From Prolixibacteraceae bacterium (GTDB taxonomy: Bacteria; Bacteroidota; Bacteroidia; Bacteroidales; Prolixibacteraceae): a stretch of DNA of 64,000 bases. Shown in pieces: positions 21,412 through 60,129 of this stretch. The stretch covers positions 5,662,429-5,726,428 of the forward strand of contig CAXXQR010000001.1 of NCBI GenBank assembly GCA_963677955.2. The letters run 5' to 3'. Numbering within the stretch: the stretch's first letter is position 1; each line of letters starts with the position of its first letter. The translations under genes and the position numbers were made by a program. A model generated the notes under the pieces. That model made no database searches and was not told the DNA's origin. It saw only the letters and a list, made by a program, of their open reading frames with translations.

Positions 21412-23175
21412 TTATTTGGTTAATATTTTCACCTCTTTGGGAGCTTCAAAGGTGGTTTTAATCGTTCCGTCGGCCAATTTTTTGTGTTCAATTTTAACTA
21501 CACCATACGGAGTTGGAAAAGTTCCCTTGACCCATTGCAAATCGCCCAAATGAGGTTCAATCTTGATTTTCCTACAACCGGGTTCAAGAACATCGATTCC
21601 CAATACATATTGAGTTAACCAACTTGTTGGACCTGATGCCCAGCCATGGCAGAAACTATGACGGAACTGTTTGTAGCAATATCCGCCATACGAAGAATGA
21701 ACATCCACTTTTCCTGCGGGTACAACTTCATCAATCCGTGCCGCATTATTCATCCAGTCGATGTCGAAGTCCTCCCAGAATGTTGTAGCACCAAGGTAGA
21801 GCATAGATCCCCAGTATTCACGGATGTTGTCGATTGCTCCCTGATAATCGCCGGCCTCAGCGCGGGCTTTCAACATATAATATCCATAGAAAGTCGACAT
21901 CTTATGAACGCCATCTTTTAACAGAACTTCAGTATTGGCTTTCTCCGGAGATACTAAGCCAGACAGAGCAAGCAGAGCTGCAGCCTGTTTAGAACCTGCC
22001 ATTTCAGGAACATGTTCCTTTAGTTTTTCAACCGATGAACGACATAGCCTTTCGGCTTCCCGATCATCCAGAATTGTACACAATTCAACTCCGGCCTGAA
22101 ATGTCATTACCATCATCGACTGTAACCCGGCGTGAATAGCTTCCTTATTCTCGCTCGAAGGCCAGTCGAGGAAACGCCCTCCATCAAGGATTTCTTTTCC
22201 GTCGGCATCAATTTTAGTGGACAACTGATGCAGTAAGGCAACCATATACTCTTTTTGCTGTTTCAGGTAATTCAGGTTTCCCTGATAATAATACCAGTCG
22301 CGCTGGATCAAAATCCACCACATTGAATACGAGCTGATACCATTCATCCAGTTGGGAAGCGGGGTCAGGTCTCGAGCCAGATCAAGGCTTTTCGGTACCA
22401 CCTCATTGTTTCCAAATACCGAATTGATGGTCATCACCTCGGGGTGCATGTCGCCCACCCAAACCAAACGGTCGCGTTTTACGCCATCCCACAGGTAATC
22501 CTGCATATTCAGGTGTACGGTATAGGCGCCAGTCATCCAGATTTTGTTCAAGCGATCGTCGTTGCACGTAAACAATCCGAGGTAAGGAATGTCGCGAAAG
22601 GTAAATGTGGCGCTTATTTCTTTAAGTTCGATTTTAGCGTTAGGGTCAACCAAGTCGATGCGCATAAAGCGGAACCCTGAATTGCCAACTTCCAACCGTC
22701 CCAGCCAAGGGAGCTGAACCTCAAAGTCGCGCATGGCATGATCGTTAGTGGCTCCTTCTTTACCAGCATCACTCATAGTTTCGCTCACCGATTCGCCAAA
22801 CCGGATTCGAATATGTCCAACCGGATTTTTATTGCTGATGGTAGTCACGATTTCGATGCCTCCCTGAATTTCGCGCCCAAAATCAAGAATAATCCCCGGT
22901 TTTGATACTGTATCACTAATTAAAGTCAGATATTTTCCTTGGTTCTGGTCGGCCTGCCCGATACCAGGTTTCAGGATAGATTCGGCATTTTGTACCTGTT
23001 TGCCTGAAGGGTCAGAAACCCAGACAATGCGCTCGGCAGTCAGGTATTTCCGGGTAAGGCTGGTAGAACGCACTTTTGAAGCTTCTGTGGTATTAAAAAC
23101 AGGTGGAAGTTGAGCCATTGCTGGCACAAACACCATCATGAAAATGGTAATAACTAATGATCGGGATAACTTCAT
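21412..23175 (-). CDS. Alpha-L-rhamnosidase, GH78-like short form
   Basis: Signal peptide; DGVKRDRLVWVGDMH (acid region), GATTFWEDF (base), SFCHGWASGP. Confidence 0.9.
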   Translation of the reverse strand: MKLSRSLVITIFMMVFVPAMAQLPPVFNTTEASKVRSTSLTRKYLTAERIVWVSDPSGKQVQNAESILKPGIGQADQNQGKYLTLISDTVSKPGIILDFGREIQGGIEIVTTISNKNPVGHIRIRFGESVSETMSDAGKEGATNDHAMRDFEVQLPWLGRLEVGNSGFRFMRIDLVDPNAKIELKEISATFTFRDIPYLGLFTCNDDRLNKIWMTGAYTVHLNMQDYLWDGVKRDRLVWVGDMHPEVMTINSVFGNNEVVPKSLDLARDLTPLPNWMNGISSYSMWWILIQRDWYYYQGNLNYLKQQKEYMVALLHQLSTKIDADGKEILDGGRFLDWPSSENKEAIHAGLQSMMVMTFQAGVELCTILDDREAERLCRSSVEKLKEHVPEMAGSKQAAALLALSGLVSPEKANTEVLLKDGVHKMSTFYGYYMLKARAEAGDYQGAIDNIREYWGSMLYLGATTFWEDFDIDWMNNAARIDEVVPAGKVDVHSSYGGYCYKQFRHSFCHGWASGPTSWLTQYVLGIDVLEPGCRKIKIEPHLGDLQWVKGTFPTPYGVVKIEHKKLADGTIKTTFEAPKEVKILTK

Positions 23176-23193
23176 TTTTATTTATTTAAGTTT

Positions 23194-25296
23194 CTATTTC
23201 GTCCAGATGCAACGGTAGTTAAATCGTCTGTTTGGTGCTGTATCGCCATCGGTACACAGCGAAATTGGATCTTTCAGTTCGGCTGCATTATCGCTCCATT
23301 TGAAATCGAACGTAAATTGATTGCCCGATAAACCAAGCAGTTCACGGGGGACCGATATTTCCAGTTTACTTCCTGAGAACCGGTATTTCAAATCAGCAAC
23401 TTCGACCCATGGATTCTCAGGATGAGCAGCATCATAACGCATCAGCGTAGTAGTTTGTCCATCTTTCACTTTCTTGTTGATCAGGTAATCGTAGCCGTAC
23501 CAACCTGTAGCCGGATTATTATCGGCATCAATCAGCAACAACATCCAATTATTATCGGTTGAAGCCGTAAGAGTTGCAACGGTTTCTGCATAAAAGCTGA
23601 TGTTTTGCTTATCGACAGCGACTTTACTTGTAACGATGTCGTTTCGCCCTGAAGTGTTGGTATAGTGCAACCCTCCATAACCGTTGGCATTTCGATGAAA
23701 GGTATCACCCTTTGTGTCACGGTACTCTGTTGAAACCAAATTCCAGTCGTCAAAATTGCCATCTGTTTTAATTTCTGAATAGCCCTTCAATTCAGGAATT
23801 GGACGAATTCCCTTGTATTTTCGGATATTCTGAGCCATCTGCATGTAATAATTGTCGGTATAACCACCTTTCATCGGGCTTACAGTCCGGTTGAACTCCG
23901 AATTGTACTGGTCGACAAAACGGAATGAACTATCTCGTCCAAGCCAAGGTGTTGTTCCTCCATCATCCAGTTGATATTTTCCTGCAGTCCATTCATTCCA
24001 ATCGTTAATATACAGAAATTCGGGGTTTGCAGCGATCGCTTCATCCCATCGCTCCTGGAAATAGATTCCGTAGCCTTCGGGACCTGCAACCGTTTTTCCC
24101 AGCCATGAAACGTAAGTAGGTTCTGGCAGATCGTATTTGTTCAGTTTTGGCTCTCCGTTCTGTCGAGACCACGATTTACCAACGCCCATGTTCTCTTTGG
24201 TCATGGTAACCGGATGCTGTGCCGGAGTAACGGCAGTCTCTTCGCGTTTGCCATTATGTGTTGAAAGTAATTCGTCAGGACTCATAGCTTTCACTTTTGG
24301 TTCGGCCATACTATAACCAAAACTCCAGTTATCTTCAGTGCCGATATAACGTCTGCCAGCCCATTCGTAATAGCCCCACCACATTGTTCGGGGGGTAAAG
24401 AAATTTTTAACTTCTTTGGTATAATCTTTATAAAACTCTTCGGTATAATCCGGATCTCCGTAATGCGGATTATTTTTATCGGTTTTGGCTGATGCATCGA
24501 AATGAGGGTTCGGATTCTCAACACCACTACCATTGGCATCTACCGCAGGATTGCCGTTGTATAATAACAGTGGTTTGCCATCCCAGTAAAACCAAAGGTC
24601 TTTGTACTTTTCCTGTTTGTAAATCCGATCGTACAAATCCTGAACAACTGTAATTACCGGGCCATTGAATGCCCAGAAAACAAATTTCGGGACCTTATTT
24701 CCTTCGGCTTTCATTTTCTGCATGGTGCTGAAAGTAACATCCCATTCGTCCCAATAGCGCACGGCATTGGTCACATCCATCACCAGCACATCAACGCCGG
24801 CATCGGCCAACATCGACATATCTTTTCGGATTACATATTCATCCTGACTCAGGAAATAACCCATTTCAGGCTCGCCCCAGTGGTATGAACCTTCAGTCCA
24901 AAGCGGGTTTTTTGCATCCAACCGTGCATTCGGATCTGCTTTCAGTATTTTTGAAACATCAGCAGAATAAGGACTTTTAAAATTGGTATAATGATCCTGA
25001 GTGTGCCATGTGATGTAAAAAATACCTGCAATGCGGCGTTGGTCGTTTTTTACGGGGCCAACCTCCTGAAAATGGGGCATCATCCGGCCCAGCGCATCAT
25101 TTGCTACCCATGTGTCCGGATAAATGTCTCGATAATAATTTTCGCCTGACGTTGCGAATGAAACTTGAGTGCCGGAATCCTCCGGACTTGTAGATTTTGA
25201 CTTTTTATCTTTCGCAAAACAGGACGAGACCGTCCCCCAAACTAACATCAACAAAACAATCAAAATATGAAAATGAAATAATTTTTGTCGCTTCAT
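23194..25296 (-). CDS. Uncharacterised GH99/GH71-like TIM-barrel glycosidase with C-terminal DOMON/CBM9-like domain (paralog 3; start revised to 25296)
   Basis: MKRQKLFHFHILIVLLML signal; IFYITWH, YHWGEPEMGYF, MLADAGVDVLVMDVTN, LYINDWNEWTAG, FVDQY, TSGRNDIV, GDTAPNRRFNY. Confidence 0.8.
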   Translation of the reverse strand: MKRQKLFHFHILIVLLMLVWGTVSSCFAKDKKSKSTSPEDSGTQVSFATSGENYYRDIYPDTWVANDALGRMMPHFQEVGPVKNDQRRIAGIFYITWHTQDHYTNFKSPYSADVSKILKADPNARLDAKNPLWTEGSYHWGEPEMGYFLSQDEYVIRKDMSMLADAGVDVLVMDVTNAVRYWDEWDVTFSTMQKMKAEGNKVPKFVFWAFNGPVITVVQDLYDRIYKQEKYKDLWFYWDGKPLLLYNGNPAVDANGSGVENPNPHFDASAKTDKNNPHYGDPDYTEEFYKDYTKEVKNFFTPRTMWWGYYEWAGRRYIGTEDNWSFGYSMAEPKVKAMSPDELLSTHNGKREETAVTPAQHPVTMTKENMGVGKSWSRQNGEPKLNKYDLPEPTYVSWLGKTVAGPEGYGIYFQERWDEAIAANPEFLYINDWNEWTAGKYQLDDGGTTPWLGRDSSFRFVDQYNSEFNRTVSPMKGGYTDNYYMQMAQNIRKYKGIRPIPELKGYSEIKTDGNFDDWNLVSTEYRDTKGDTFHRNANGYGGLHYTNTSGRNDIVTSKVAVDKQNISFYAETVATLTASTDNNWMLLLIDADNNPATGWYGYDYLINKKVKDGQTTTLMRYDAAHPENPWVEVADLKYRFSGSKLEISVPRELLGLSGNQFTFDFKWSDNAAELKDPISLCTDGDTAPNRRFNYRCIWTK

Positions 25297-25405
25297 ACTT
25301 TTAAAAGATTTAACTTTATCCAAATCAATAAGGTATGGCAATTTATGTCTAATCTGAAATGCCAGTCTTCTGCTTAATCCTCCTCGTGACAGGATCATCA
25401 CACTA

Positions 25406-25441
25406 CCTTCCCTTTTTACTGAAAGGGGTTTTGGAGTGGTT
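25406..25441. repeat. Degenerate REP-like hairpin in intergenic spacer
   Basis: CCCTTT-TTACTG-AAAGGG flanked by GGAGTGG; similar layout to the element at 9332. Confidence 0.25.
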
Positions 25442-25483: not shown

Positions 25484-28400
25484 TTAATACTGAACACTTG
25501 AAATTCTCACAGGGCCAAACAATCCGGAAGGTTGTAGCGGGCTGTCAGCATTGTAGGTATTAACCGGACACCATGTTTTTCGCTGATCGACCGGCAATTT
25601 GCTGTCGCCAATCAACCTATTGACCCAGGTATTGACCACTTCAATTTTCAGGTCGTTTTCACCAGCTTTGACTAGTTTGGTAATATCAAGCTGGTAAGGC
25701 GCTGTCCATAATCCACCGGCATACGTGCCATTTACTGTGACTTTGGCCATCGCCGTGAAACTGCCCAGATCAATAATTACATTCTTGCCCTCAGGAATTT
25801 GAGCTACATTGAATTTAAAGCTGTAAAAGGCTGTTCCTGAATAGTATTTAATACGGTCATCTGAAGAAGTGGTCCAGTCCTGAAGTGTTTCGAAAACCGC
25901 TGGTTGCTCCGGACCACGTTGCGAAGCATCGAAAGCAACTGTCCACGGGCCTTTCAAATCGGCCAGAAGTGTTGGTTCAGGATAATTGGCATACACGCCT
26001 TTACCGGTAGCAGTAGCAGCCTTTTCGCGAAAAACAACAAATACACTTTCGTATGGAGCCAGTTTCAACGGAACGGCTGTCGTAATTCCGTTTTGCTCGT
26101 AAGCCGGAAGTTTGCGAATCGAACCGGTGGCGGTTTGCCAAAGTTCGGGTTGCAATCCTTTTATCCTGAATTCAGGAGTAACTATCTTGGTTTCTCCGGT
26201 TTGATTGGTCACAAAATACAACTCGCCGTTTTGTGAAGTGCGGTGTCCGTAGTGAATGGAGCGGTCTTCAGGCAATTTACAATCCGGAACACAATTAATC
26301 TGAGCAAAAGCTTCTTTCATGCTCAAACCGTTTATGATTGTTCCTTTACCGAATTTTCGTGATTTTACATTCACACCGTCCACTTCACCCCAAAGTTCTG
26401 TGACCATTTGCTGAACTTCTTGGTCGGCTGTTGGCTGGTTTTGTAAACTGGGAGATCGTTTGGGAGCAGGTCCCAGAATAACCGCACCACCATTAACCAA
26501 CTGTTTGATTTTTGCCAATAATTCAGGACGCATGGTTTCGAGTTTTGGAAGCACCAGAATACGGTATTGGGTTCCGTGAGGTAAAGTGATCAGGCCATCT
26601 TTCACGGTCATGTATTTCTCAATAACCTCGGCATTCATGTAGTCGAATTGATAACCGACAGGAAGAGCAGGATCGGTGATTCCGGTCATTTTCGGCGCAT
26701 CTTCGCCAATAAAATAGGCTACATCAGCAACGTTCAATCCCTGCTGAAGCATATAATTTGTCCGTTTCAGGTATTGGGTATAAACATCCATTTGCGAAAA
26801 CCAGGTGTTTTTCCGGTTAAACTCATTCCCAAACCATGCATTCATACCGGGATTCTTGTCCTCGTAGGGCTGGGTGATGTAAACGTGCAATAATGTATTA
26901 TTGATTCCCTCAGCGAAAAAGCGGTCGCCACGTTGTTTGATCGTTCCGGGGTAACGGCTGAAATGATTGCCAGCACAGGTATTCGATTCGGCTGAGATTT
27001 TTGTTTTGCCATAGATGTGCCCACACGAAGTAGCTGCGCGGTTTTCGATGTTTCCCAAATCGCCTTCGCTCCAGAATTCGCCACCAATTTCGTCGGATTG
27101 TCCGCCGTACATCAGGAATTCGCTCGGGAAGCCCCAGTGTCCGTAACATTCCAGCCATGTATGCAATCCATATTTGTGGCTAATATCGCGCAGACCGCCC
27201 ACATAATCATAAGCAACTTTGTCGGCCACCATGCGGCGCATGTCCCATAAAAAACGATCCGATGACTGTTCGCTGTTCACAACCAGTCCTTTGTACACCG
27301 GTAGGTATGGAACCGGATCATACCCATAACGTTGTTTGAAGTCGGCGATAAAATCGTCAGTGAAGTTCTGACCACCGGTTTCATAACTATCCTGAACCAC
27401 CACTTTAAAGCATTTGCGGTCGGCCACCGGAATGCGTTTCAGGATTTCACCCATGTGCCCTTCAAAATGCATGGCGACATGTTCACGGCTCATTTTGTCG
27501 ACTTCATAACCAGTAGCTTCGGGCGATGCCGGAGCGTTTGTTGTTCCGGTCGGGGTCATTCCGGTACGAAGAATTACCCATTCGCCTTCAGGAACATCCC
27601 AGTTTAGGGTTCCATCGGCAGATAGGTTCTTCGTAATATCAATTACTTTTGATCCATCAATCACCATTGACTGATCTTTTGGTTCGGGCTGCTGCGGCCA
27701 TTGGTATTCGTGCCAGTAAGGAAGAGGAGTTTGGTACATTTTGGCCAGTGTCTTCTCAGCATAGCGTTCAACGCGGGGCGCCGCTGAAAGCTCTACTTCT
27801 GCCAATCCATCGCCCGAATTAATACCTTTTACAAGAACACGGAATGTGGTTGAAGTGACAGCAGGGAAAGATACCACCACCGGAGCATAAGAATCAAAAC
27901 CTACATTTAATGTAGCGTTAAAACGGTTAATCTGGAATTCAGCAACCGTTCTGAATTTTCCGTTGGCTTCCTTTACCTGTAATATCGCCGGGTTATTAAT
28001 TGCCCCTTCTATCGGAGTAACCGACAGGCTCCGGGCAGTAAACGGTGAGTTCGATTCGAAATCGATTGTAAAATCGCCGTTTGCCGGGAAATGAATCCCG
28101 GTATTGCGGTCCCGGTCAACAATCTTCGACAAATCTGAACCCTTGGGAGATGAACTGATTTTTGCGTTGTTGACGTCAAGAATCAGCTGGTCATCTTTGG
28201 GGGTGGGATAAGCGATTACCTTAACATCCTGAAACAATTCTATTGGTTTTTCGAGCTTTTGGCTGAACTTCATCGGACCTTTTACCCGTAATTCTGACGA
28301 AGTCAGGTAGCGCATAGCCGCATCAGCTTTCACCCACGGCCCACCCGACTGGCTCCAGCCCGGCGAGTTGAAAATCCCGATTTCGATGTTCAGTTCAGTA

Positions 28401-28726
28401 GCCGTTTTTAACGCAGCATGAAGGATATCCCACCACTCGTCGCTGAGCATTTTTACTTTTCCGTAGGGAATATCTGAAAGGCCTATATTCCCAATAAATG
28501 CGCGGTTAATTCCGGCTTTTTTCATCGCGTGAAGGTCGTTGATCACGCCTTCGTTCGAAATGTTATCGGATATCCAGTACCAGTAAACACTGGTCAGTAT
28601 CGAATCGGGTGGTGCAATGAAGCCTCTCTCAAATGCCTCTCCTGGTACTTTTCCCTTATCAATTTTGCAAGAAGAAAAGAATAGTACCACAAAAAGGTAA
28701 ATTATCAATCTGTATACTAAGCCCAT
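25484..28726 (-). CDS. GH106 alpha-L-rhamnosidase-like lipoprotein
   Basis: Lipobox FFSSC; VYWYWISDNIS.EG...DL..MKKAGI, PGWSQSGGPW, GYEVDKM, VVQDSYETG, ISAESNT; C-terminal GH2-type sugar-binding domain (PSGLFGPV). Confidence 0.88.
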   Translation of the reverse strand: MGLVYRLIIYLFVVLFFSSCKIDKGKVPGEAFERGFIAPPDSILTSVYWYWISDNISNEGVINDLHAMKKAGINRAFIGNIGLSDIPYGKVKMLSDEWWDILHAALKTATELNIEIGIFNSPGWSQSGGPWVKADAAMRYLTSSELRVKGPMKFSQKLEKPIELFQDVKVIAYPTPKDDQLILDVNNAKISSSPKGSDLSKIVDRDRNTGIHFPANGDFTIDFESNSPFTARSLSVTPIEGAINNPAILQVKEANGKFRTVAEFQINRFNATLNVGFDSYAPVVVSFPAVTSTTFRVLVKGINSGDGLAEVELSAAPRVERYAEKTLAKMYQTPLPYWHEYQWPQQPEPKDQSMVIDGSKVIDITKNLSADGTLNWDVPEGEWVILRTGMTPTGTTNAPASPEATGYEVDKMSREHVAMHFEGHMGEILKRIPVADRKCFKVVVQDSYETGGQNFTDDFIADFKQRYGYDPVPYLPVYKGLVVNSEQSSDRFLWDMRRMVADKVAYDYVGGLRDISHKYGLHTWLECYGHWGFPSEFLMYGGQSDEIGGEFWSEGDLGNIENRAATSCGHIYGKTKISAESNTCAGNHFSRYPGTIKQRGDRFFAEGINNTLLHVYITQPYEDKNPGMNAWFGNEFNRKNTWFSQMDVYTQYLKRTNYMLQQGLNVADVAYFIGEDAPKMTGITDPALPVGYQFDYMNAEVIEKYMTVKDGLITLPHGTQYRILVLPKLETMRPELLAKIKQLVNGGAVILGPAPKRSPSLQNQPTADQEVQQMVTELWGEVDGVNVKSRKFGKGTIINGLSMKEAFAQINCVPDCKLPEDRSIHYGHRTSQNGELYFVTNQTGETKIVTPEFRIKGLQPELWQTATGSIRKLPAYEQNGITTAVPLKLAPYESVFVVFREKAATATGKGVYANYPEPTLLADLKGPWTVAFDASQRGPEQPAVFETLQDWTTSSDDRIKYYSGTAFYSFKFNVAQIPEGKNVIIDLGSFTAMAKVTVNGTYAGGLWTAPYQLDITKLVKAGENDLKIEVVNTWVNRLIGDSKLPVDQRKTWCPVNTYNADSPLQPSGLFGPVRISSVQY

Positions 28727-47081: not shown

Positions 47082-47126
47082 GAACTACCCCGCAGCAAGC
47101 TGCGGGGAACTAGCCCCAAAGAGATT
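47082..47126. repeat. Small palindromic insertion (REP/MITE-like)
   Basis: GAACTA-CCCCGCAGC-AA-GCTGCGGGG-AACTAGCCCCAAAGAGATT: perfect 9-bp GC-rich inverted repeat (47088-47107) in an AT-rich spacer. Confidence 0.55.
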
Positions 47127-52621: not shown

Positions 52622-54520
52622 CTACCAACCTAGATTTTGCCAATCTTCACCAGTAATCGCTTTAAGTCGATTCGCTTCAGCAAGAGGCATCGGTACTCTA
52701 AGGAATTTGTTGGTGTAACACTTCCTCTCGGTGGCGCGCACGTTGCGGCGCCCATAAGAATAAGTACCGTCCGAATTTCGGGTTATTTCCATTGCTGTTA
52801 TCCATCTATCGGTTTTTGAAAGATCACTTTCAGGATCGCACCAACGACGTACATCGAAATAACGATTCTCTTCCATTGCCAGTTCGACTCTTCGTTCATT
52901 GCGAACGCGCAGAATGAGAGCCTCTTTGGATAACGACGCCGGTATGTCAGGCATACCAACTCTTCTTCGTATTTCATTCACGGCATCTGTAGCTTCTGTT
53001 AACTTTCCAGCTTCTGCTGCGGCTTCAGCAAAGTTCAGAATTACTTCGCCTAAGCGAAAAAGTTTCCAGTTCGCTCCTCCAACAACATTATCGCCTCCTG
53101 AGTTTGGATGCAAAAATTTTCGTTCAAAGTATCCCGTTCGTGTAGCTCTTCTTACTGAAGCACTAATACCTGTCTGAGGTTCGCCAACATAGGTTGCAAT
53201 AATTCTGGTCCTATTACCCATAGGTGCAGGATAATTCTCATAAGATTCAGGGGCTTCAGCAAAACTCCAATAACATTTTCGTTTTGAACCATTATAGTAA
53301 ATTGAAGCATAAAAACGGGGATCTCTATTTGCATAAGGATCCTGTGGATTATAAAGCGAATTGGCTGAATTATAATTGGGCTGTAAATGATTTTCATCAA
53401 GATATGGAGTTTCAAGATTCAGAATTGATTGCCCATCAATGGTTTCGTAAGCATCCACCAACTCCTGTGAAGGACATGTTCCAGATTTATATCCATCTTG
53501 GCACCCAATACCATCAATGTTCCATATATTTCCCTGGCCTTCACGACTTTGATAGATCGTCTCTTTATCAACAGGAGTTGACGAATAACTCATCGTTTGC
53601 GTAAAATATTCATTATAAAGCGCAGAGTATTCACTCTTCTCTGGTCCAATAAATGCCACATCTGACATATAAGTTTGAGGAAAATTTACTTTGCTGTACA
53701 ATTCAAATCCATTTGACTTCAGGTTTGCAAGCGAAGTTTTGTTGATTTGATAAGCCTCTTGCCAATAGTCATTTCCTTCGTTATAGAGTGGACTAGCAGC
53801 AAAAAGGATCATTTTCGATTTAATTGCTTCTGCCATTCCTTTATTTACACGCCCAGATTCTGAAGCTATGGTAATCCTCCAGGGTAATTCGGCGGTAGCA
53901 ATAGCAACGTCACAATCCGCAATAATGAATTTAACTACATCATAATAACTTTCTTTCTTCAGTTCAGAAAAATCATCAGCAAGACCGTATGAAGTCTGTT
54001 CGATTGGTAGAACAGGGCCAAACCATTTGAGCAATTCAGAATAATAATACGCTCTAAGTAAATGTGCTTCAGCCTTCCAGCGTTTGCGATCAGTTTCATT
54101 GGTTACAGTGGCATTATCTATACGCTCAATAAATACAGAACAATTGCGAATCGCACTCCAATACCTGGCCCAGTAATCGCCATTTCCCATATCAGAACTA
54201 ATATTGGTAACCGGATGGTTACTTGCAGAAGCATCTCCGTTATACATACGACCCGACATAATCCATGATTCGGCTTCTGCATCAGTGTCCCAAGCTTCAT
54301 CGCTCCAATCGACCGGGCCTCTGCTCCAGAAAAAATACCTTGTGCCTTTCGCTGGCATATTTGTATAACAACTGTTAAGAAATGCCCCGACCTTTTCATT
54401 ATCAGTAAAAACTTCATCCATTGTAATTTTACCATCGGGAGCCATATCCAAGGCTTTAGAACATGACCCTAAGGTTAGTATCACCACTACTAATGCGGAG
54501 TATATGCATTTAATCTTCAT
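52622..54520 (-). CDS. susD: SusD/RagB lipoprotein (SusD1)
   Basis: Lipobox LGSC; EAHLLRAYYY, RDPRFYASIYYNG, RLGEVILNFAEA, RNERRVELAMEENRYFDVRRW. Confidence 0.95.
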   Translation of the reverse strand: MKIKCIYSALVVVILTLGSCSKALDMAPDGKITMDEVFTDNEKVGAFLNSCYTNMPAKGTRYFFWSRGPVDWSDEAWDTDAEAESWIMSGRMYNGDASASNHPVTNISSDMGNGDYWARYWSAIRNCSVFIERIDNATVTNETDRKRWKAEAHLLRAYYYSELLKWFGPVLPIEQTSYGLADDFSELKKESYYDVVKFIIADCDVAIATAELPWRITIASESGRVNKGMAEAIKSKMILFAASPLYNEGNDYWQEAYQINKTSLANLKSNGFELYSKVNFPQTYMSDVAFIGPEKSEYSALYNEYFTQTMSYSSTPVDKETIYQSREGQGNIWNIDGIGCQDGYKSGTCPSQELVDAYETIDGQSILNLETPYLDENHLQPNYNSANSLYNPQDPYANRDPRFYASIYYNGSKRKCYWSFAEAPESYENYPAPMGNRTRIIATYVGEPQTGISASVRRATRTGYFERKFLHPNSGGDNVVGGANWKLFRLGEVILNFAEAAAEAGKLTEATDAVNEIRRRVGMPDIPASLSKEALILRVRNERRVELAMEENRYFDVRRWCDPESDLSKTDRWITAMEITRNSDGTYSYGRRNVRATERKCYTNKFLRVPMPLAEANRLKAITGEDWQNLGW

Positions 54521-54540: not shown

Positions 54541-57500
54541 TTAGAAAGTGAGGTCGAGACCAAAGTTTTTCATTTTGGTTACAGGATACCCGATTGGATT
54601 GTTGTTCTCCGGATCGAGGTGACCCATTCTTAAATGATCCCACGTAAAGAGGTTTTGTCCACTCACATAAATCCTTAGATTCTGTACTCCAAGTCTTTTG
54701 AGTGACCCCTTAGGAAGCGTATATCCCAACTCTATATTTTTCAGACGGGTAAAAGAACGATCCATGATAAAGAAATCGTTCGCCACATGATTTGTATTGC
54801 TGTGAGTACTTAATGCCGGATAAGTAATTTTCTCCCCATTAGCATATCGCTCAGCAGTCCAGGCATTTTTGTGGTAATCAAAATAAGTTCCCTTTATGAT
54901 GTACTCGTATACACCCTGGGCAGCATAATTGCTGCTATATTTACCAACGCCTTGAAAAAATACAGTGAAGTCGAAGTTTTTGTATGCAAGATTAATGGTG
55001 AGCCCATAGGCAACACGAGGGATACTGGAAAATCCGATTGGTGCCTGATCCTTGTCATTGATAATGCCATCTTTATTCAAGTCTATATATTTGAAATCAC
55101 CAACACGCGGATCTCCAAAGCCATAAGTTGTTGTGGCCAAGTAATTGTCTAATTCTTCCTGTGAATTGAAGTATCCGTTACCATTGCTGTAATCAATTTT
55201 GTAACCCCATGCCTGTCCAATGGAATAACCAGTGCTTCGGTAACGATAAGCGTATGATTCGTCACGAATTGGTTCATCCATGTACTTTCTTTTATTGTGA
55301 TTATAACCATAATTACCTCTGATTGTAATCGAAAGATCTTTGGACAACGTTTTATTGTATGTCATCTCAATCTCATACCCACTATTGTCAACTTTTCCCA
55401 TATTAACTTTTGGTATATTACCCAAAGGAACACCCTGCAATTCAGGAACGGTACCACGAGATATAAGGATCTGACTCCGGTTCTCAACAAAGTAATCAAC
55501 TGAAAGGCCAAGCTCACTAAATAGTTGAAGATCGACACCATAATTTTGTTTTTTAGCAACCTCCCAACTTAAGTTCGGATTTCCCAAAAGCCCTTGATTT
55601 ACTCCTTGCCCCAAACCCAGGCTACCAAGAGGTCCTCCTCCCATACTGATATTATCTTGATAAAGGAAACGTGCATTCCCCATTTTATCGTTACCAACCT
55701 TTCCATACGAAGCCCTTAGTTTCAGGCTACTGATAATTTCGCTTTCTTTCAGAAAATCTTCATTGGATATAACCCAACCTGCAGATATTGCAGGGAAGAA
55801 CCCGTAACGTTTACTTGGTGCAAATTGCTCGGAACCGTTGTAGCCCATATCCACTTCTCCTAGGTACCGGCTATCGTAATCATAGGTAAAACGACCTGAA
55901 ACGCCCAACAGATTGTATGGGATTTCTCCCGCTGTTGTTTCCCAATAATCTCTTTGGGCCAAAATCATTCCGGTAACATTGTGTTTCAATCCAAATGTCC
56001 TTTTGTAATTAATAGATCCCTGCATGTTAATGTTGTAACGAGAATCAGCGCCCTTACTTATTGAAAGTAAACTTTCACCTGACCGTTTAACAGCATAACT
56101 CAATGTATTTGTTGCAGAATTAACGTCAGCCAAGTATAGTCGTTCTGATTTATCTCCCTGCATAGCTGTAGTTGATTTTGAATCATATGACATCATCCCT
56201 TTTACACTTAAACCTTTAGTAATAATCTCACTTAAATCCCAATCCAGAGCAAAGGAGGCATTAAGGTTAGCTCTTACTTCATTCCGATATCCCATACGAT
56301 TCATAATTTCAAAAGCAGAACGATCCATGTAACCAGGGTCGACTATTTGTCCAGGCTCAACTCCAAAACCAGCAATAGTAGTTGGGCCGGGAGTTATTGG
56401 AAGAATTGTTTGCGCCTGATAAAGAAGATCTGACATCATCCAATTTGTATCGTTACCATATAACCAAGCTGCGGGCATATTAACTTGTTCAATGTAACTT
56501 CCAATATTCAGAAATGATTTTAATGATTTCGTTACATTGTAGTCAATATTAGCCCTGAAATTATAACGATCCATTTTGGAAGAGGGGTCATACCCTAAAA
56601 CTGATTTAGATTCGGTATTCAGATTTCCTCCCTGATGAAGGTAAGCCGCATTCACGAAATAAGAAATTTTTTCGGTACCACCACTTGCGCTCATATTAAT
56701 TCGCGTTTGCGGCGCATACCTGGAAATATATTCACGATAATAATCATGGTCAGGGTACATATATTGACGGATGCGGGCTTGTTCTGCATAATCTGAAGCA
56801 TTCGGATCAAGGCCTGCCAGCGGATTTGCATACCTATCCATGGTTGTTTGATCAAAAGGAGGTGTTGTTATCCCGTCATTCAATGAAGCTTCATTCCGAA
56901 GTGCCATATATTCCAAAGAATGAAGACGCTCGGGTTCACGTGTAAATGAAGTATAACTCTGTTCGGCATTAACCGAAAGCTCCATTTTACCAGTAGTACC
57001 TCGTCGGGTGGTAATCAGAATTACACCATTAGCTCCTCGTACACCAAACAAGGCTGTAGCCGATGCATCCTTTAATATTGAAACCGATGCTACTTCATTG
57101 GGGTCAATTGTGCGAATGTTATCGCGAGGAACTCCATCTATAAGGATCAATGGACTCGTACCATTGGTAGTAGCGGCTCCACGCAGATACATAGTTGCAT
57201 CATCGCGCCCAGGCTGGCCACCACCTGATTGGATAGAAGTCAAACCGGAAATCCGACCTGACAATGCATTAGCTAAACTGGCAGACGAGCTTTGTACAAT
57301 TTCTTTGGTTTCGATGGAAGAGACTGCTCCTGTAACAGTAGCTTTTTTCTGAACACCATAACCGACAGCGACAACTTCTTCCAATCCGACAGTCTCGTCT
57401 TCCATTACTACAGTAAAGTTTGTTTTATTTCCAACCGGAACTTCCTGAGTTTTCATTCCAACAAATGAGAAAACCAGAATTTTGGCTTCACCTGTATAAA

Positions 57501-58026
57501 GCACCCGAAAATTTCCATCTGCATCAGAAATATTACCGAATGTTGTGCCTTTAATAATAACAGTAACCCCAGGCACCGATATATTTTGCTTATCAACAAC
57601 TCTTCCCGTTATTTCCTTTTTTTGTTCGACAACGGATGGTTCTATAATACCCCCAGTCGCTGGATTTTTTTTGCCGATGACAATTTGTCGGTCAAAAACC
57701 TCAAACGTATTTCCTGTCGAATCCAAAACTCTTTCAAGAATTTTTTCAACAGAAAGGTTCTCTACTCGAATATTGATTTTTTGATTTAAATCTAGAGCAT
57801 CATCGTAAAACACAAAAATAAATTCACTTTTGCTTTCGATTTCTTTAATTAGCTGTTGGATTGTTGCATTTTGTAAATTTAATGACAACTTCGTATTCTG
57901 AGAATAGCTGACACTGGCACTTACAGAAGCAATGGTGGTTAGCAGAAAAAACAGACATATTTTCATAGTCAGTAATAGTTTTTTCAGGTACCGAAATTTC
58001 GGTTCATGAAACTTGTTTTTTTTCAT
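54541..58026 (-). CDS. susC: SusC/RagA TonB-dependent transducer with N-terminal STN signalling domain (SusC1)
   Basis: SLNLQNATIQQLIKEIESKSEFIF (STN); ILKDASATALFGVRGANGVILITTRRG; ends NFGLDLTF. Confidence 0.97.
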   Translation of the reverse strand: MKKNKFHEPKFRYLKKLLLTMKICLFFLLTTIASVSASVSYSQNTKLSLNLQNATIQQLIKEIESKSEFIFVFYDDALDLNQKINIRVENLSVEKILERVLDSTGNTFEVFDRQIVIGKKNPATGGIIEPSVVEQKKEITGRVVDKQNISVPGVTVIIKGTTFGNISDADGNFRVLYTGEAKILVFSFVGMKTQEVPVGNKTNFTVVMEDETVGLEEVVAVGYGVQKKATVTGAVSSIETKEIVQSSSASLANALSGRISGLTSIQSGGGQPGRDDATMYLRGAATTNGTSPLILIDGVPRDNIRTIDPNEVASVSILKDASATALFGVRGANGVILITTRRGTTGKMELSVNAEQSYTSFTREPERLHSLEYMALRNEASLNDGITTPPFDQTTMDRYANPLAGLDPNASDYAEQARIRQYMYPDHDYYREYISRYAPQTRINMSASGGTEKISYFVNAAYLHQGGNLNTESKSVLGYDPSSKMDRYNFRANIDYNVTKSLKSFLNIGSYIEQVNMPAAWLYGNDTNWMMSDLLYQAQTILPITPGPTTIAGFGVEPGQIVDPGYMDRSAFEIMNRMGYRNEVRANLNASFALDWDLSEIITKGLSVKGMMSYDSKSTTAMQGDKSERLYLADVNSATNTLSYAVKRSGESLLSISKGADSRYNINMQGSINYKRTFGLKHNVTGMILAQRDYWETTAGEIPYNLLGVSGRFTYDYDSRYLGEVDMGYNGSEQFAPSKRYGFFPAISAGWVISNEDFLKESEIISSLKLRASYGKVGNDKMGNARFLYQDNISMGGGPLGSLGLGQGVNQGLLGNPNLSWEVAKKQNYGVDLQLFSELGLSVDYFVENRSQILISRGTVPELQGVPLGNIPKVNMGKVDNSGYEIEMTYNKTLSKDLSITIRGNYGYNHNKRKYMDEPIRDESYAYRYRSTGYSIGQAWGYKIDYSNGNGYFNSQEELDNYLATTTYGFGDPRVGDFKYIDLNKDGIINDKDQAPIGFSSIPRVAYGLTINLAYKNFDFTVFFQGVGKYSSNYAAQGVYEYIIKGTYFDYHKNAWTAERYANGEKITYPALSTHSNTNHVANDFFIMDRSFTRLKNIELGYTLPKGSLKRLGVQNLRIYVSGQNLFTWDHLRMGHLDPENNNPIGYPVTKMKNFGLDLTF

Positions 58027-58033: not shown

Positions 58034-58039
58034 ATTCGT

Positions 58040-58193: not shown

Positions 58194-59393
58194 TTAATTG
58201 ATCGACTTTTTGGATATTATGATAACATCATCTTTCACATCAGCAGAAATAGGGGCAGTTGAACTGATTGCCTTAAATATTTCAGAACATTCGGTTTTCA
58301 GATCCAGTTTACCGGTCAAGCTCATTTTCCGTGTTTCTGCGTCCTTAAATTCTATTCGTAGATTGTAGTATCTCGAAAGCTTGGTGGCAATTGTTTCCAG
58401 TGTTTCTTTTTCACAATACAACCATCCTTCCTTCCACGAAATATATGGCAGGACATCAGTTGTACTTAATGTTGTTGCGGCTGATCGTTTTTCGTAGGCA
58501 AGCAACTGATTGGGTTTCATCAACACTTTTTTTGAATTCACAGTCGCCTCAACACTTCCCTCGACCAGCACTACTAAAGTGGACTCGTCATCGGAATATG
58601 CTGATACATTAAACGTGGTCCCTAGTACTCTTAAATGTACATTATCAGTCACCACAAAAAAGGGTTTAAATGCATCGTGGGCGACTTCAAGATATGCTTC
58701 CCCTTCAATAAATATCTCACGCTTTTGTTTAGTGAATACAACAGGAAAGATAGCCCGGCTACCAGAATTAAGCCATAATTTTGTGCCATCAGAGAGGGTG
58801 AGACTAGTCCTTTTTCCGAGAGGAACAACCAACTGGTTGAGTTGCTCTGTTTCACTATCCGAATTTAGATTTTTTTTTGCCAATCGTTTGTCAGAATTAA
58901 CTTCAACTTCGCCTTTACTGTTGTATTTTATATCCAGATCTTCTGATGGAAGTACTTCCTCAGATTTATCTGCAAAAATCAATTTGACTTCACTATCCTG
59001 GGATTCAACTCTTGCAATAGACTTGTAATCAATGCTATAATTATTCTGTTTATTTAGTTGAAAATATACAAGCCCAGTAATTCCCACCAGTAAAAGGAAA
59101 CTTGCAGCAGTCATCCAGGTTGATATTCGAAAGATTTTTTTTCGGGGACTGATCGTATCATTTTCAATACGGGTCCAAAGATTGAGAACAACTTCTTCCG
59201 TCAATTCCTTTTCTTTCGGGATAATACTTTGAATGAAAAAAATGGCATCTTCTACTTCCTTTTCATGTCCAGAATTTTCCGAAATAAATTTTTTCCAATG
59301 CTGATCTGATTCTTTTGTTGGTCTGATTACCCACTCAAAAAATTCAGGATTATGAATTAAGGCTTCAGAATTTGTGTCTAAATTGTGATTCAT
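58194..59393 (-). CDS. fecR: FecR-family anti-sigma factor
   Basis: Central TM; VPLGKRTSLTLSDGTKLWLNSGS, EGEAYLEVAHD, RVLGTTFNV, LVEGSV, SWKEG. Confidence 0.95.
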   Translation of the reverse strand: MNHNLDTNSEALIHNPEFFEWVIRPTKESDQHWKKFISENSGHEKEVEDAIFFIQSIIPKEKELTEEVVLNLWTRIENDTISPRKKIFRISTWMTAASFLLLVGITGLVYFQLNKQNNYSIDYKSIARVESQDSEVKLIFADKSEEVLPSEDLDIKYNSKGEVEVNSDKRLAKKNLNSDSETEQLNQLVVPLGKRTSLTLSDGTKLWLNSGSRAIFPVVFTKQKREIFIEGEAYLEVAHDAFKPFFVVTDNVHLRVLGTTFNVSAYSDDESTLVVLVEGSVEATVNSKKVLMKPNQLLAYEKRSAATTLSTTDVLPYISWKEGWLYCEKETLETIATKLSRYYNLRIEFKDAETRKMSLTGKLDLKTECSEIFKAISSTAPISADVKDDVIIISKKSIN

Positions 59394-59443: not shown

Positions 59444-59538
59444 TTATTTTATTTTTTTATAAATATTTAATGTAAAATTAACGATCCGGCAGGTCGTAGC
59501 CTAAGGGACTGATTTGGATACTAAATTTAAATTAAGTC

Positions 59539-60129
59539 TTATCGCTTTAAAAACGAGCAAAAAAGCACAAGGGATTTCTTTTGGCAAGTTTCTCTCAACT
59601 TTTCAATTCCGCGGAAAATCAAGTTCCGGACTGATTGGTAATTCATCTGAAGAACCTCACTTAATTCTTCATAGCTCAAGCCTGTTACAAACCTCAGATA
59701 AATTGCTTCGCGCTGACGATTACTAAGCCCTTGCATAGCCTTTTCAAGTAATTCAAATTGCCTAGATTTTAAGTCATCTTCGATTTCCGTACAGACTGAT
59801 AAGGAATAAAAAAAAGAGGGGTTTTCTGAATCTAAAGCAACATACCGTCCTTCTTCATTAAGTATCTTGAAAAGTTTCCTTTTAAGCGAAATAAACAAAT
59901 AAAGTTTGATATTATTTGTACTTTTTAAATTCTTTCTATATCTATGAAGATCAATAAAAACATCATGAACACAATCGTGAATTAACTCTTCATTTTTAGT
60001 AAAATGATTGCCAAATTTAAATAACGACTGAACATAGGTATTATAAATAGTCTTGTAAGCCTCTGTACTTCCGGAAAGGAAATCATTCCACAATTGGGTA
60101 TCCGTTGTAAATAGAGGAGCTTCCGGCAT
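59539..60129 (-). CDS. ECF sigma-70 factor of the PUL
   Basis: DCVHDVFIDL, YLFISLKRK, LSNRQREAIYLRFVTGLSYEELSEVL; directly upstream of fecR. Confidence 0.95.
   Translation of the reverse strand: MPEAPLFTTDTQLWNDFLSGSTEAYKTIYNTYVQSLFKFGNHFTKNEELIHDCVHDVFIDLHRYRKNLKSTNNIKLYLFISLKRKLFKILNEEGRYVALDSENPSFFYSLSVCTEIEDDLKSRQFELLEKAMQGLSNRQREAIYLRFVTGLSYEELSEVLQMNYQSVRNLIFRGIEKLRETCQKKSLVLFCSFLKR

Follow-up and report, generated by a model that had tools for sequence, protein, structure and literature searches.

The gene array at positions 21412-60129 of the window (the whole 64,000-nt stretch of Prolixibacteraceae DNA analyzed here) is a real, widely conserved sugar-harvesting cluster of the Bacteroidota. 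As a PUL the system is of a known kind, but at its centre stand two or more large families that have no characterised member or solved structure, GH99/71-like and DUF5722, and several smaller unassigned families adjoin them in the cluster. In our preferred reading, to which we assign a probability of about 0.5, it is a trans-envelope-signalling, Prolixibacteraceae-like PUL that would break down a rhamnose-containing, non-pectin complex heteroglycan in a stepwise manner. Since the core enzymes belong to large families without a characterised member, the cluster is a good place to seek new enzyme activities, and identification of the substrate would give function to thousands of 'hypothetical proteins' and probably extend the list of glycoside hydrolase families. 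The cluster could also supply endo-acting enzymes for neutral rhamnose-rich polymers, which have so far been limited to phage tailspikes and the ulvan-specific GH39 (PMC13706346). Our literature search found no paper on DUF5722 or on this locus.

Gene array, regulators and transporters

All 19 genes lie on the minus strand (every array ORF of at least 150 aa was checked); they appear as 20 ORFs because one gene is split in two by a frameshift. The chance probability of such co-orientation is ~2^-18, the intergenic gaps measure 4-197 bp throughout, and the clustering exceeds chance both in co-orientation and in the synteny of a core across many genomes. The array encodes an ECF sigma factor, an anti-sigma factor, two adjacent SusC/SusD pairs and thirteen enzyme-type genes, GH106, GH127 and GH78-like ones among them, whose products are secreted proteins or lipoproteins. 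The strand, gap, transporter and regulator data thus bear out the PUL of 19 co-oriented genes that had been proposed from the letters alone. The regulatory and transport genes, with two terminator-like hairpins, are as follows.

59539..60129, minus strand: g01, ECF-type sigma factor (Sigma70_r4_2 E 1.9e-13; Sigma70_ECF)
58194..59393, minus strand: g02, FecR-type anti-sigma factor (FecR E 3.6e-16; FecR_C E 2.1e-13)
54541..58026, minus strand: g03, SusC-type TonB-dependent transporter with N-terminal STN (STN E 5e-10; Plug; CarbopepD_reg_2; TIGR04056 873 bits)
52622..54520, minus strand: g04, SusD-like lipoprotein (SusD_RagB E 5.8e-50; lipobox LGSC)
49471..52587, minus strand: g05, second SusC-type transporter, without STN (Plug; CarbopepD_reg_2; TIGR04056 729 bits)
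47211..49409, minus strand: g06, second SusD-like lipoprotein (SusD_RagB E 7.7e-45; ~125-aa beta-sandwich insert)
47088..47107, minus strand: terminator-like GC-rich hairpin where the SusC/D block gives way to the enzyme genes (8 pairs, 7 G-C; a consensus match only)
21117..21147, minus strand: terminator-like hairpin at the array end (12-bp stem, then a T-run; 265 bp past the g20 stop)

g03, with its STN signalling domain, probably partners the anti-sigma factor g02; g05 is 37% identical to g03. The insert of g06 (residues 403-530) is 39% identical to residues 47-175 of the DUF5722 enzyme g13; this beta-sandwich module forms the N-terminal part of DUF5722 enzymes and recurs in SusD and SGBP-like proteins of related loci. 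A SusD that shares a putative binding-type module with an enzyme of its own locus is unusual and constitutes a testable glycan-capture feature.

Enzyme families of the array

The thirteen enzyme-type genes are listed below in order of transcription. Most of them fall outside the families of Pfam, NCBIfam and PDB, as the sequence-only reading had supposed.

44509..47013, minus strand: g07, GH99/71-like paralog A (Por_Secre_tail E 1.8e-12; TIGR04183; motif WNEWITG)
42519..44477, minus strand: g08, GH127 six-hairpin glycosidase, lipoprotein (PF07944 E 4.9e-35, 121.7 bits; PF20736 E 4e-22, 78.6 bits)
40793..42493, minus strand: g09, BACON-domain lipoprotein (BACON E 7.4e-8; GH130 E 1.3e-4, below cut-off)
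38711..40675, minus strand: g10, 654-aa secreted protein (796 homologs, some with PF06202 GDE_C)
37831..38706, minus strand: g11, secreted metallo-beta-lactamase-fold (MBL) hydrolase (Lactamase_B E 7.4e-12; intact HPHPDH motif, residues 84-89)
36120..37808, minus strand: g12, C-terminal right-handed beta-helix protein (PF12708 E 2e-5, below cut-off)
33920..36079, minus strand: g13, DUF5722 lipoprotein (PF18989 E 6e-124; two N-terminal beta-sandwiches and a (beta/alpha)8 barrel)
31753..33875, minus strand: g14/g15, single ~707-aa gene (ORFs 32229-33875 and 31753-32352; 1-nt frameshift near 32365)
30619..31728, minus strand: g16, secreted protein with C-terminal PKD domain (PKD_4 E 3.5e-12)
28762..30576, minus strand: g17, GH99/71-like paralog B (signal peptide; TIM barrel and C-terminal beta-sandwich; AF2 pLDDT 93.4)
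25484..28726, minus strand: g18, GH106 alpha-L-rhamnosidase-family lipoprotein (PF17132 E 3.5e-226, 753.6 bits)
23194..25296, minus strand: g19, GH99/71-like paralog C, lipoprotein (31% identical to g17 over 667 aa; lipobox VSSC)
21412..23175, minus strand: g20, short GH78-related six-hairpin protein (Bac_rhamnosid6H E 1.7e-16; Bac_rhamnosid_C E 1.4e-7)

The three paralogs g07, g17 and g19 found no match in Pfam (E up to 0.01, and up to 5 for g19), NCBIfam or PDB sequence searches. Their GH99/71-like character, claimed earlier, was supported by predicted fold and by profile: Foldseek placed the g17 model closest to GH99 in the PDB (E 1.6e-7; TM 0.5-0.59 on target) and next to GH71 (E 1.5e-6), and a g17 profile matched BxGH99 across the whole barrel (E 5e-5), which gives homology to the (beta/alpha)8 fold of BtGH99 and BxGH99. 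g07 and g17 are 52-56% identical to each other, g19 is 31-38% identical to both, and g17 is the most conserved of the three, with top matches at 78-89%. Translation of g19 really starts at Met68 of the ORF as listed (25296), where the copies in its own genome begin, and not the GTG at 25497. g07 carries a beta-sandwich insert (residues 219-348) common to g09, ends in a T9SS C-terminal sorting domain, and is a candidate surface or secreted endo-acting enzyme.

In the g17/BxGH99 alignment, E347 falls on E333 and A350 on E336; the paralogs keep just the first residue of the GH71/GH99 acidic dyad (E347-x-x-A350). Position 350 is Ala, conserved at 90% or more in the family, and Thr in g07, while W345-N346-E347, D37, D120, D137, D142, E275, D368 and D389 are invariant in 90 sequences reaching down to 31% identity. 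With Ala or Thr at the second dyad position, even a hydrolytic role of the paralogs is inferred, and the lost residue poses a mechanistic question of its own. The same substitution, at a position where GH71 (DxxE) and GH99 (ExxE) require an acid, would fit proteins that are not hydrolases at all, such as binding proteins, transglycosylases or phosphorylase/lyase-type enzymes; we regard this as improbable given the invariant Trp-Asn-Glu and acidic residues, CBM and dockerin fusions typical of catalytic modules, and copy numbers of 2-5 paralogs in each locus that resemble expansions of exo- and endo-GHs. The family comprises 4,305 clusters at 50% identity. A scan of 44 long members detected CBM6 in 12, CBM35_2 in 4, a T9SS tail in 5 and a dockerin in 1, and F5/8 type C (CBM32-type) models gave 3 and 2 matches; such fusions are as expected for a secreted polysaccharide-active enzyme. 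Judged by sequence and predicted structure, g07, g17 and g19 most likely form a glycoside hydrolase family of their own, with a catalytic apparatus unlike those of GH99 and GH71.

PDB sequence and profile searches with g13 returned no match. Its AF2 model (pLDDT 89.8) resembled GH2, GH39, GH1 and GH5 in Foldseek with a TM of 0.51 or less, and all 27 DUF5722 sequences compared keep N468-E469 and E611. The predicted TIM barrel, with an N-E acid/base motif and a Glu at the nucleophile position, makes g13 a putative clan GH-A-type barrel outside the assigned families.

The rhamnosidase-type enzymes and g08 were more readily placed. g18 covers positions 2-741 of the 743 in PF17132 and matches PDB entries 6q2f (E 2e-152) and 5mqm (BT0986; E 9e-121), as a GH106 member should. 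g08 matches 6ex6 (E 2.6e-34), 5mqo (E 5.8e-31) and 4qjy, consistent with its GH127 domains; by sequence it would belong to the beta-L-arabinofuranosidase/aceric-acid-hydrolase family, related to BT3674 and the aceric-acid hydrolase BT1003. The two domains of g20 score above their Pfam cut-offs (60.9 bits vs 24.5; 31.7 vs 22.1), but the 587-aa protein is 21% identical to canonical GH78, reaches 19.9 bits vs 1800 in NCBIfam, and lacks detectable Bac_rhamnosid_N and concanavalin-like domains in Pfam. Its sequence marks it as a distant GH78 relative, not a canonical GH78. Hence, of the three families that had been called confidently classifiable, GH106 and GH127 held up whereas GH78 did not.

The remaining genes are less defined. 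g09 has no sequence relative in the PDB, and its C-terminal domain belongs to no family. g10, which found no match in Pfam, NCBIfam or PDB searches, probably has a six-hairpin fold. g11 is a candidate for removing a non-sugar, perhaps phospho, substituent; an MBL homolog is fused to GH20 in Proteiniphilum (locus L021). The cap motif of g12 matches GH55, epimerases and GH28 in the PDB. In g14/g15 the frame switches between FLDAARK and AFDFCMPM, an intact 707-aa homolog (P0242) aligns with both parts, and homologs measure 697-734 aa, so the split represents either a pseudogene or an assembly error. In g16, described earlier as a DOMON-PKD gene, the PKD domain was found and DOMON was not detected; its N-terminal 300 aa gave nothing further in Pfam at E up to 5.

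Related loci and the conserved core

Among 78 related loci, we counted DUF5722 in 24, a second SusC/D in 23, g19 in 22, GH106 in 16, canonical GH78 in 13, GH78-like in 10, GH127 in 8, HTCS in 8, PF14307 in 7, GH140-like in 6, and GH20, FGGY kinase (rhamnulokinase-type) and CotH in 4 each, with RhaA in 1; the pectin-backbone families PL, GH28, GH105 and CE8 were not found among the neighbours. The cluster is conserved in such different hosts as Bacteroidales of the rumen and human gut, Sphingobacteriia of soil and Prolixibacteraceae of marine origin. Of 200 genomes sampled in the phylum, 1 has the GH99/71-like family, as do 6 of 19 in the genus, yet identity reaches 75-78% across classes, which suggests horizontal transfer.

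A conserved core consists of the tandem SusC/D pairs, g17, g19, DUF5722, GH106 and the GH78-like gene, joined by g10 and the MBL gene in close relatives. One congener (G012) holds this core alone (g01-g06, g10, g11, g13 and g17-g20). The absent genes, g07, g08, g09, g12, g14/15 and g16, may therefore serve another glycan, and the earlier assumption of a single glycan for all 19 genes was overstated. It is conceivable, if on balance unlikely, that the array is a mosaic in which this core was supplemented with accessory genes for other glycans or target variants, some of them decaying. Besides the core-only congener and the patchy but highly similar family, this would account for the absence of g15 from 30 relatives, the frameshift in g14/15, and a duplicate of the g18-g19-g20 module elsewhere in the same genome, which adjoins a DDE transposase and contains a broken GH78-like copy. 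On the other hand, orthologues of g07 and g08 keep the same order in Gaoshiqia (L010), as do those of g08 and g09 in Dysgonomonadaceae loci; g07 is a paralog of core enzymes that has a module in common with g09, and short intergenic gaps run all along the array.

A second PUL lies next to the array, and its last gene is cut by the window end.

62679..64000, minus strand: GH20 beta-hexosaminidase gene, truncated by the window end (GH20 E 3.5e-99)

This adjacent PUL, complete in a related locus (L093), comprises a sigma factor, an anti-sigma factor, SusC, SusD, a 730-aa protein and GH20. Homologs of the last two adjoin g17 orthologues in five loci (L011, L012, L077, L013 and L019), and the functional unit probably extends beyond the window end into it. 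Type I phosphodiesterase and EEP genes also occur near family members in related loci, a calcineurin-type phosphoesterase stands next to a third g19 copy, and another is fused to a member of the g07/g17/g19 family. The GH20 and phosphoesterase associations are infrequent (4-6 of the 78 loci each).

Substrate and comparison with known systems

Rhamnose in the target is well supported by sequence, through the GH106 and canonical GH78 genes of the related loci together with their FGGY kinases and RhaA. In the locus itself we detected neither lyase nor sulfatase families, and the pectin-backbone families are missing among the related-locus neighbours; on rhamnose, on the poor pectin/RG-II fit and on the lack of lyases and sulfatases, the sequence-only reading was sound. 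Its microbial target (wall, capsule or EPS) and phospho-substitution have circumstantial backing: the GH20 associations hint at HexNAc, and the intact MBL motif, the GH20-MBL fusion and the scattered phosphodiesterase, EEP and calcineurin-type genes hint at phosphate. We tentatively favor, at somewhat short of even odds, a surface glycan that contains rhamnose and HexNAc and belongs to other microbes (wall polysaccharide, O-antigen, capsule, EPS; necromass), with phospho-decoration as a best guess on circumstantial grounds. The MBL fold by itself does not point to phosphate in particular.

Under the preferred reading, T9SS-exported g07 together with three lipoproteins (g09, g13 and g19) would bind and cut the polymer on the cell surface, with the system-specific ~125-aa beta-sandwich module on the second SusD and DUF5722 aiding binding. 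The fragments would enter through both SusC/D pairs, and sensing of one of them at the STN-SusC would release the sigma factor. Within the periplasm, removal of alpha-L-rhamnose would fall to GH106 and the GH78-like enzyme and that of a beta-L-arabinofuranose-type branch to GH127, and g17, g10 and g14/15 would cut the remaining linkages; the MBL hydrolase may strip a non-sugar substituent, possibly a phosphodiester.

A plant glycan, either pectic side chains (RG-II chain A/B-like, RG-I) or a rhamnose-capped arabinogalactan-protein, is an unlikely target. In that case the unassigned enzymes would stand in, outside Bacteroides, for activities of the GH137-GH143 type, and their fold classes (beta-helix, propeller-like and six-hairpin unknowns) agree with this, as do the kinship of g18 to BT0986 and of g08 to BT3674 and BT1003, the frequent GH78, the GH140-like genes, and the origin of many related loci in plant-fed habitats (rumen, horse, termite and digester genomes). 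Against it, PL1/9/10/11, GH28, GH105, CE8 and CE12 are absent from the locus and from the recurrent related-locus neighbours, NCBIfam models of B. thetaiotaomicron pectin enzymes stay below their cut-offs, the associated GH20 and phosphoesterases correspond to nothing in pectin or AGP, and regulation in this genome is by an ECF sigma factor, not HTCS. Less probable still is a rhamnose-rich green-microalgal or cyanobacterial wall or exopolysaccharide, e.g., Chlorella-type Rha/Ara/Gal/GlcA polymers with a glucosamine-containing wall. Rhamnosidases, GH127 and a neighbouring GH20 would suit Rha/Ara-rich algal walls, and the lineage of the host lives in water or sediment. Among viral proteins, the structure closest to g17 is M1HHB3 (24% identity, E 4.5e-15), presumably a chlorovirus protein from its accession block. 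A Chlorella pyrenoidosa polysaccharide contains 51.8% Rha and 12.2% Ara (compositional table, PMC13706346). However, the family is common in MAGs from mammalian gut, rumen and termite, habitats in which microalgae contribute little to the diet, and IMG/VR gave only 2 weak matches.

Returning to the microbial surface glycan, one bolder extension is that g07, g17 and g19 form a third GH71/GH99 superfamily branch, unclassified in CAZy and with a new catalytic arrangement, that endo-cleaves rhamnose-containing bacterial surface glycans and, alongside DUF5722 and an 'uncapping' esterase of MBL type, makes up a widespread Bacteroidota pathway of wall/O-antigen recycling in guts, soils and sediments. 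We hold this to be speculative and rather unlikely.

Compared with known enzymes, the paralogs share the N-E(333) motif of GH99 (BtGH99, BxGH99 and human MANEA; endo-alpha-1,2-mannosidases/mannanases) as W-N-E347, but they are ~14% identical, have no Pfam GH99 match, replace the second Glu of the ExxE pair (E336) with Ala/Thr, carry an additional ~180-aa C-terminal beta-sandwich, and lie in loci rich in rhamnosidases, not mannosidases. With the GH71 alpha-1,3-glucanases (AnGH71C, Agn1p), g17 shares the layout of barrel and C-terminal beta-sandwich, which in AnGH71C pack on each other (PMC12394665). GH71 requires a conserved DxxE dyad (PMC12394665), which is E-x-x-A in the paralogs; in addition, the structural match is weaker than that to GH99, identity is 10-11%, g17 superposes poorly (rmsd about 17 Å full length), and the alpha-glucan context is absent from the loci. 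DUF5722 shares the Asn-Glu after strand 4 and the Glu after strand 7 with the clan GH-A retaining glycosidases (GH2 beta-glucuronidases, GH39, GH1, GH5), at 8-14% identity and the low TM given above.

At the level of whole systems, the RG-II degradome of B. thetaiotaomicron employs BT0986 (GH106), BT1003 (GH127), GH78s and GH140. GH78, GH106, GH127 and GH140-like enzymes together also recall that system, an observation that weighs against the preferred reading: the array shares GH106 (5mqm match), GH127 (5mqo match) and a GH78-type enzyme with it, and GH140-like genes appear only in related loci. It differs in that the PL1, GH28, GH105, GH2, GH43 and GH95 set is missing, g08 scores 143 vs 950 bits at the NCBIfam aceric-acid hydrolase equivalog cut-off, control is by ECF sigma, and GH20 and phosphoesterases are associated; GH137-GH143 were likewise undetected in the locus by Pfam and NCBIfam, a soft result as Pfam covers these families incompletely. 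Finally, Bacteroides ECF-sigma/anti-sigma PULs signal across the envelope via an STN-bearing SusC, and the present array has the sigma factor, FecR anti-sigma factor and STN-SusC in the same canonical order. Unlike them, it adds an extra SusC/D pair without STN, a SusD with an inserted binding-type module, and one enzyme exported by T9SS.

Layout and assigned genes of the array

All ORFs of the array (21412-60129) lie on the minus strand with intergenic gaps of 4-197 bp, and the 20 ORFs, numbered g01 to g20 from the 60129 end, represent 19 genes, two ORFs being the halves of one gene; the count of 19 co-oriented genes made in the sequence-only reading was thus borne out. The array is a real, conserved PUL. 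The features at its borders, together with a hairpin inside it, are as follows.

Border and internal features of the array
21147-21117, minus strand: terminator-like hairpin with a 12-bp stem, 3' of the last array gene
47107-47088, minus strand: GC-rich hairpin, 3' of the second susD (g06)
62679-64000, minus strand: GH20 gene truncated by the window end, the last gene of an adjacent PUL

A sigma-70 promoter scan returned counts equal to those of shuffles, its consensus not covering Bacteroidota promoters. Upstream of the array, two small plus-strand ORFs (61018-61491 and 61572-62207), neither with any Pfam match, occupy the low-GC gap (60130-62678, GC ~0.34) that separates the two minus-strand PULs. 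Downstream are a sigma factor and an RND efflux operon, both unrelated. The stretches 1-11767 and 13246-18817 begin with five tandem genes of 688-800 aa, the first truncated by the window start, of which the two that were scanned are both MacB/FtsX-type permeases; after them come a TMEM175-like channel gene and the RND efflux operon (AcrB, HlyD, OEP), all unrelated to the PUL.

Pfam and NCBIfam assigned an ECF sigma factor (g01), a FecR anti-sigma factor (g02), a first SusC carrying an STN signalling domain and followed by its SusD (g03/g04), a second SusC lacking STN and followed by the second SusD (g05/g06), a BACON protein (g09) and a PKD protein (g16). The g08 protein is a GH127 enzyme with the solved relatives BT3674 (6ex6) and BT1003 (5mqo), g18 is a GH106 enzyme (754 bits; relatives 6q2f and BT0986), and g11 is an MBL-fold hydrolase with an intact HPHPDH motif. 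The g20 product, previously called a confident GH78, is a short GH78-related protein: it does exceed the Pfam cut-offs, but its identity to the canonical GH78 of a related locus is 21% and the N-terminal domains are missing, so the call was too strong. A DOMON domain proposed for g16 was dropped, as Pfam gave no such match up to E 5, nor any match at all to the g16 N-terminus at that threshold. The g12 protein has a beta-helix cap motif, and its PDB sequence matches are limited to the generic beta-helix cap. PDB sequence searches with g09 and with the 654-aa g10 protein yielded nothing useful; g10 also had no Pfam match up to E 5, and PF06202 (GDE_C, six-hairpin) occurs in some of its 796 homologs. 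Here, an enzyme is termed unclassified when it is unassigned in Pfam, NCBIfam and PDB.

Lipoboxes were found in g04, g06, g08, g13, g18 and g19 (counted from Met68), and g09 was judged to bear one as well. Ordinary signal peptides are present in g10, g11, g12, g14, g16, g17 and g20, and g07 combines a signal peptide with a T9SS sorting domain. From the conserved Met (25296), the longest g19 ORF (23194-25497) reaches 67 codons further upstream to a GTG, and this N-terminal extension, which overlaps the end of g18, is probably not translated. The split gene, g14/15, consists of 32229-33875 and 31753-32352, which form one gene of ~707 aa (31753-33875) with a single-base frameshift near 32365, the junction reading ...FLDAARK|AFDFCMPM.... 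Both pieces align end to end with P0242, an uninterrupted homolog of 707 aa (86-95% identical), and the remaining homologs measure 697-734 aa. Either a true pseudogene or an assembly error would account for the frameshift. Neither g14 nor g15 matched Pfam up to E 5, and g15 is missing from the genomes of 30 relatives.

Unclassified enzymes and shared modules

The three paralogs g07, g17 and g19 are homologous to each other over their whole length (g07 and g17, 52-56% identity; g19 to either, 31-38%), and g19 had no Pfam match up to E 5. An AlphaFold2 model of g17 built from 90 sequences (mean pLDDT 93.4) found as its best PDB folds the GH99 endo-alpha-mannosidases (E 1.6e-7, TM ~0.5-0.59 on the target, 14% identity), the E333Q and E336Q variants among them, and next the GH71 alpha-1,3-glucanases; for the C-terminal beta-sandwich the match was weak and CBM9-like. 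The family profile also reaches BxGH99 by sequence (E 5e-5) across the barrel. From these fold and profile matches, the earlier "GH99/71-like" call for the three paralogs was right. In an alignment of the motif N-E-x-x-[E/A]-G anchored on both sides, the invariant E347 falls on E333 of BxGH99, and A350, nearly invariant but Thr in g07, falls on E336. Both families need a catalytic dyad, ExxE in GH99 and DxxE in GH71 (PMC12394665). The g07/g17/g19 family keeps the fold and, in E347, the first dyad residue, but with Ala (Thr in g07) as the second it fails a feature that defines GH99 and GH71 alike.

The family has more than 6,282 homologs among 8,000 candidates scored; at 50% identity there are 4,305 clusters, of which 1,538 lie at E 1e-30 or better, and the named matches are all "hypothetical protein". 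Literature searches on new GH99/GH71-type families and on WbsX/PF14307 found no characterised counterpart. The fusion partners of 44 long members were scanned.

Domains fused to long members of the g17 family (of 44)
CBM6: 12
Cu-amine-oxidase-N1 stalk: 8
T9SS tail: 5
CBM35_2: 4
F5_F8_type_C_2: 3
F5_F8_type_C: 2
PA14: 2
Dockerin: 1
Calcineurin-type phosphoesterase: 1

Judged from these domain assignments, the spectrum is the signature of what would be a secreted, polysaccharide-active catalytic module. In two other loci, from Muribaculum caecicola (L074) and a rumen MAG (L049), 4-5 GH99/71-like members stand in tandem, which suggests that their specificities have diverged within a single locus. 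Among viral structures, g17 is best matched by the BFVD entry M1HHB3, a 463-aa viral protein (24% identity, E 4.5e-15) nearer to g17 in structure and sequence than any solved GH99; its accession block is one that we take to be chlorovirus. With just 2 weak matches in IMG/VR, the idea that the family came from phages or viruses was rejected.

The g13 protein belongs to DUF5722 (E 6e-124), in which N468-E469 and E611 are invariant across 27 sequences. Its model (pLDDT 89.8) has two N-terminal beta-sandwiches and a TIM barrel, and Foldseek matched it to generic clan GH-A enzymes alone (GH2 beta-glucuronidases, GH39, GH1, GH5) at TM <=0.51. Searches of the PDB with a single sequence and with a profile found no relative, and a literature search on DUF5722 found no paper; a control search reported one member in B. 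thetaiotaomicron. The first DUF5722 domain (g13 residues 47-175, 35555-35941) is 39% identical to a ~125-aa beta-sandwich that interrupts g06, the second SusD (residues 403-530, 47820-48203). This module, which has no Pfam assignment, recurs in many related loci in g06-type SusDs, at the DUF5722 N-terminus and at the C-terminus of DUF4959/F5-8C proteins. A second module (34% identity) is shared by g07 (residues 219-348, 45970-46359), where it is an insertion in the barrel-containing protein, and by the BACON protein g09 (residues 175-308, 41570-41971). Both may be system-specific carbohydrate-binding modules.

Related loci and the extent of the system

Relatives were searched in one genome per species, giving 581 stretches that encode them, and 78 loci were fetched. 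These came from gut Bacteroidales (rumen, horse, chicken, mouse, human, termite), digester Proteiniphilum and Dysgonomonadaceae, soil Pedobacter, Chitinophaga, Parapedobacter and Olivibacter, marine Prolixibacteraceae, one Kiritimatiellota MAG and one Sedimentisphaerales MAG. Cultured strains and species among the carriers are Gaoshiqia hydrogeniformans Z1-71, Maribellus luteus XSD2, Proteiniphilum acetatigenes DSM 18083, Parapedobacter defluvii, Pedobacter psychroterrae and Chitinophaga pinensis.

Neighbours within 10 kb of a g17 relative (loci, of 78)
DUF5722: 24
g05-type SusC: 23
g06-type SusD: 23
g19: 22
GH106: 16
Canonical GH78: 13
DUF4959 + F5/8C surface-binding-type protein: 10
GH78-like (g20): 10
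GH127: 8
HTCS regulator: 8
PF14307, another GH99-like family: 7
GH140-like: 6
GH20: 4
FGGY kinase: 4
CotH: 4

The 110 rarer neighbours tallied include GH2, GDSL esterases, GH43, sulfatase, type I phosphodiesterase, EEP phosphatase and one RhaA; pectate and rhamnogalacturonan lyases, GH28, GH105 and pectin esterases are all absent from the tally. One complete genome of a congener has the sigma and anti-sigma factors, both SusC/SusD pairs in the same succession, g10, g11, g13 and g17-g20, and lacks g07, g08, g09, g12, g14/15 and g16. The g17 family is patchy, occurring in 6 of 19 genomes of the genus and 1 of 200 others sampled across the phylum. Within the genus the SusC/D proteins share just 45-57% identity and the enzymes 70-85%, and g17 orthologues of another class (Parapedobacter) share 75-78%. 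This patchiness and identity pattern likely reflect enzymes under strong constraint in a locus that spreads horizontally.

The adjacent PUL, upstream of the array (62679-64000 here, complete at 1108-12336 of locus L093), encodes, in order, a sigma factor, an anti-sigma factor, SusC, SusD, a 730-aa protein without assignment and the GH20. Two integrase-family genes lie beyond it (L093 12431-14749). Homologs of its GH20 (41-42%) and 730-aa protein (41%) directly adjoin g17 orthologues in Draconibacterium, Maribellus luteus, Proteiniphilum acetatigenes and two MAGs, and a Proteiniphilum MAG (L021) joins a g11-type MBL domain and GH20 in one 799-aa protein. By gene neighbourhood, the functional unit probably extends past 21412-60129 into the adjacent GH20 PUL.

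The genome from which the window comes carries two further g19-type copies. One belongs to a duplicate of the g18-g19-g20 module (C1:4400436-4407804, at 4.40 Mb; L089 8436-15804; 82-86% DNA identity) that adjoins a DDE transposase and whose GH78-like copy is broken into two ORFs. The other (C1:4953688-4967737; L091 1688-15737) lies in a separate cluster with a calcineurin-type phosphoesterase, a GH63/MGH1-like six-hairpin enzyme, an esterase, two unassigned proteins and a beta-helix protein.

Target glycan

That the target contains rhamnose is well supported, and the GH20 links suggest that it has beta-HexNAc too. To our knowledge, pectins and arabinogalactan-proteins lack beta-HexNAc. A pectin target was down-weighted, as neither the locus nor related loci hold backbone enzymes; a plant glycan, RG-II-like or AGP, is a less likely alternative. 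Phosphoesterases recur at low frequency and span four folds (MBL, type I phosphodiesterase, EEP, calcineurin-like). The sole precedent we know of for an MBL-fold enzyme that takes a phospho-substituent off a wall polymer is pneumococcal Pce. A microalgal glycan is also a less likely alternative: M1HHB3 as the best viral structural match of g17 is a curious hint through its presumed chlorovirus link, and rhamnose/arabinose-rich Chlorella polymers exist (PMC13706346).

Going beyond the domain assignments, the reading that we favour is of a PUL whose target would be a surface glycan of other microbes, one that contains rhamnose and HexNAc and is partly substituted. The interpretation in the sequence-only reading was supported in part, and its underlying observation was confirmed. 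The exported g07 would act as the endo-enzyme, the two SusC/D pairs would take up the fragments, GH106, the GH78-like protein, GH127, g17, g10 and g14/15 would complete degradation in the periplasm, and the MBL-fold g11 would remove the substituent.

Literature searches on GH78/GH106/GH127 PULs, rhamnan PULs and teichoic-acid PULs found no characterised counterpart, and one on endo-rhamnanases returned phage tailspikes alone. Just phage-type GH90 and ulvan GH39 are listed as endo-rhamnosidases in a review (PMC13706346); an enzyme of cellular origin that cuts neutral rhamnose-rich polymers internally would therefore be new. Within a known kind of system, the PUL, the locus holds at least two candidate new glycoside hydrolase families.
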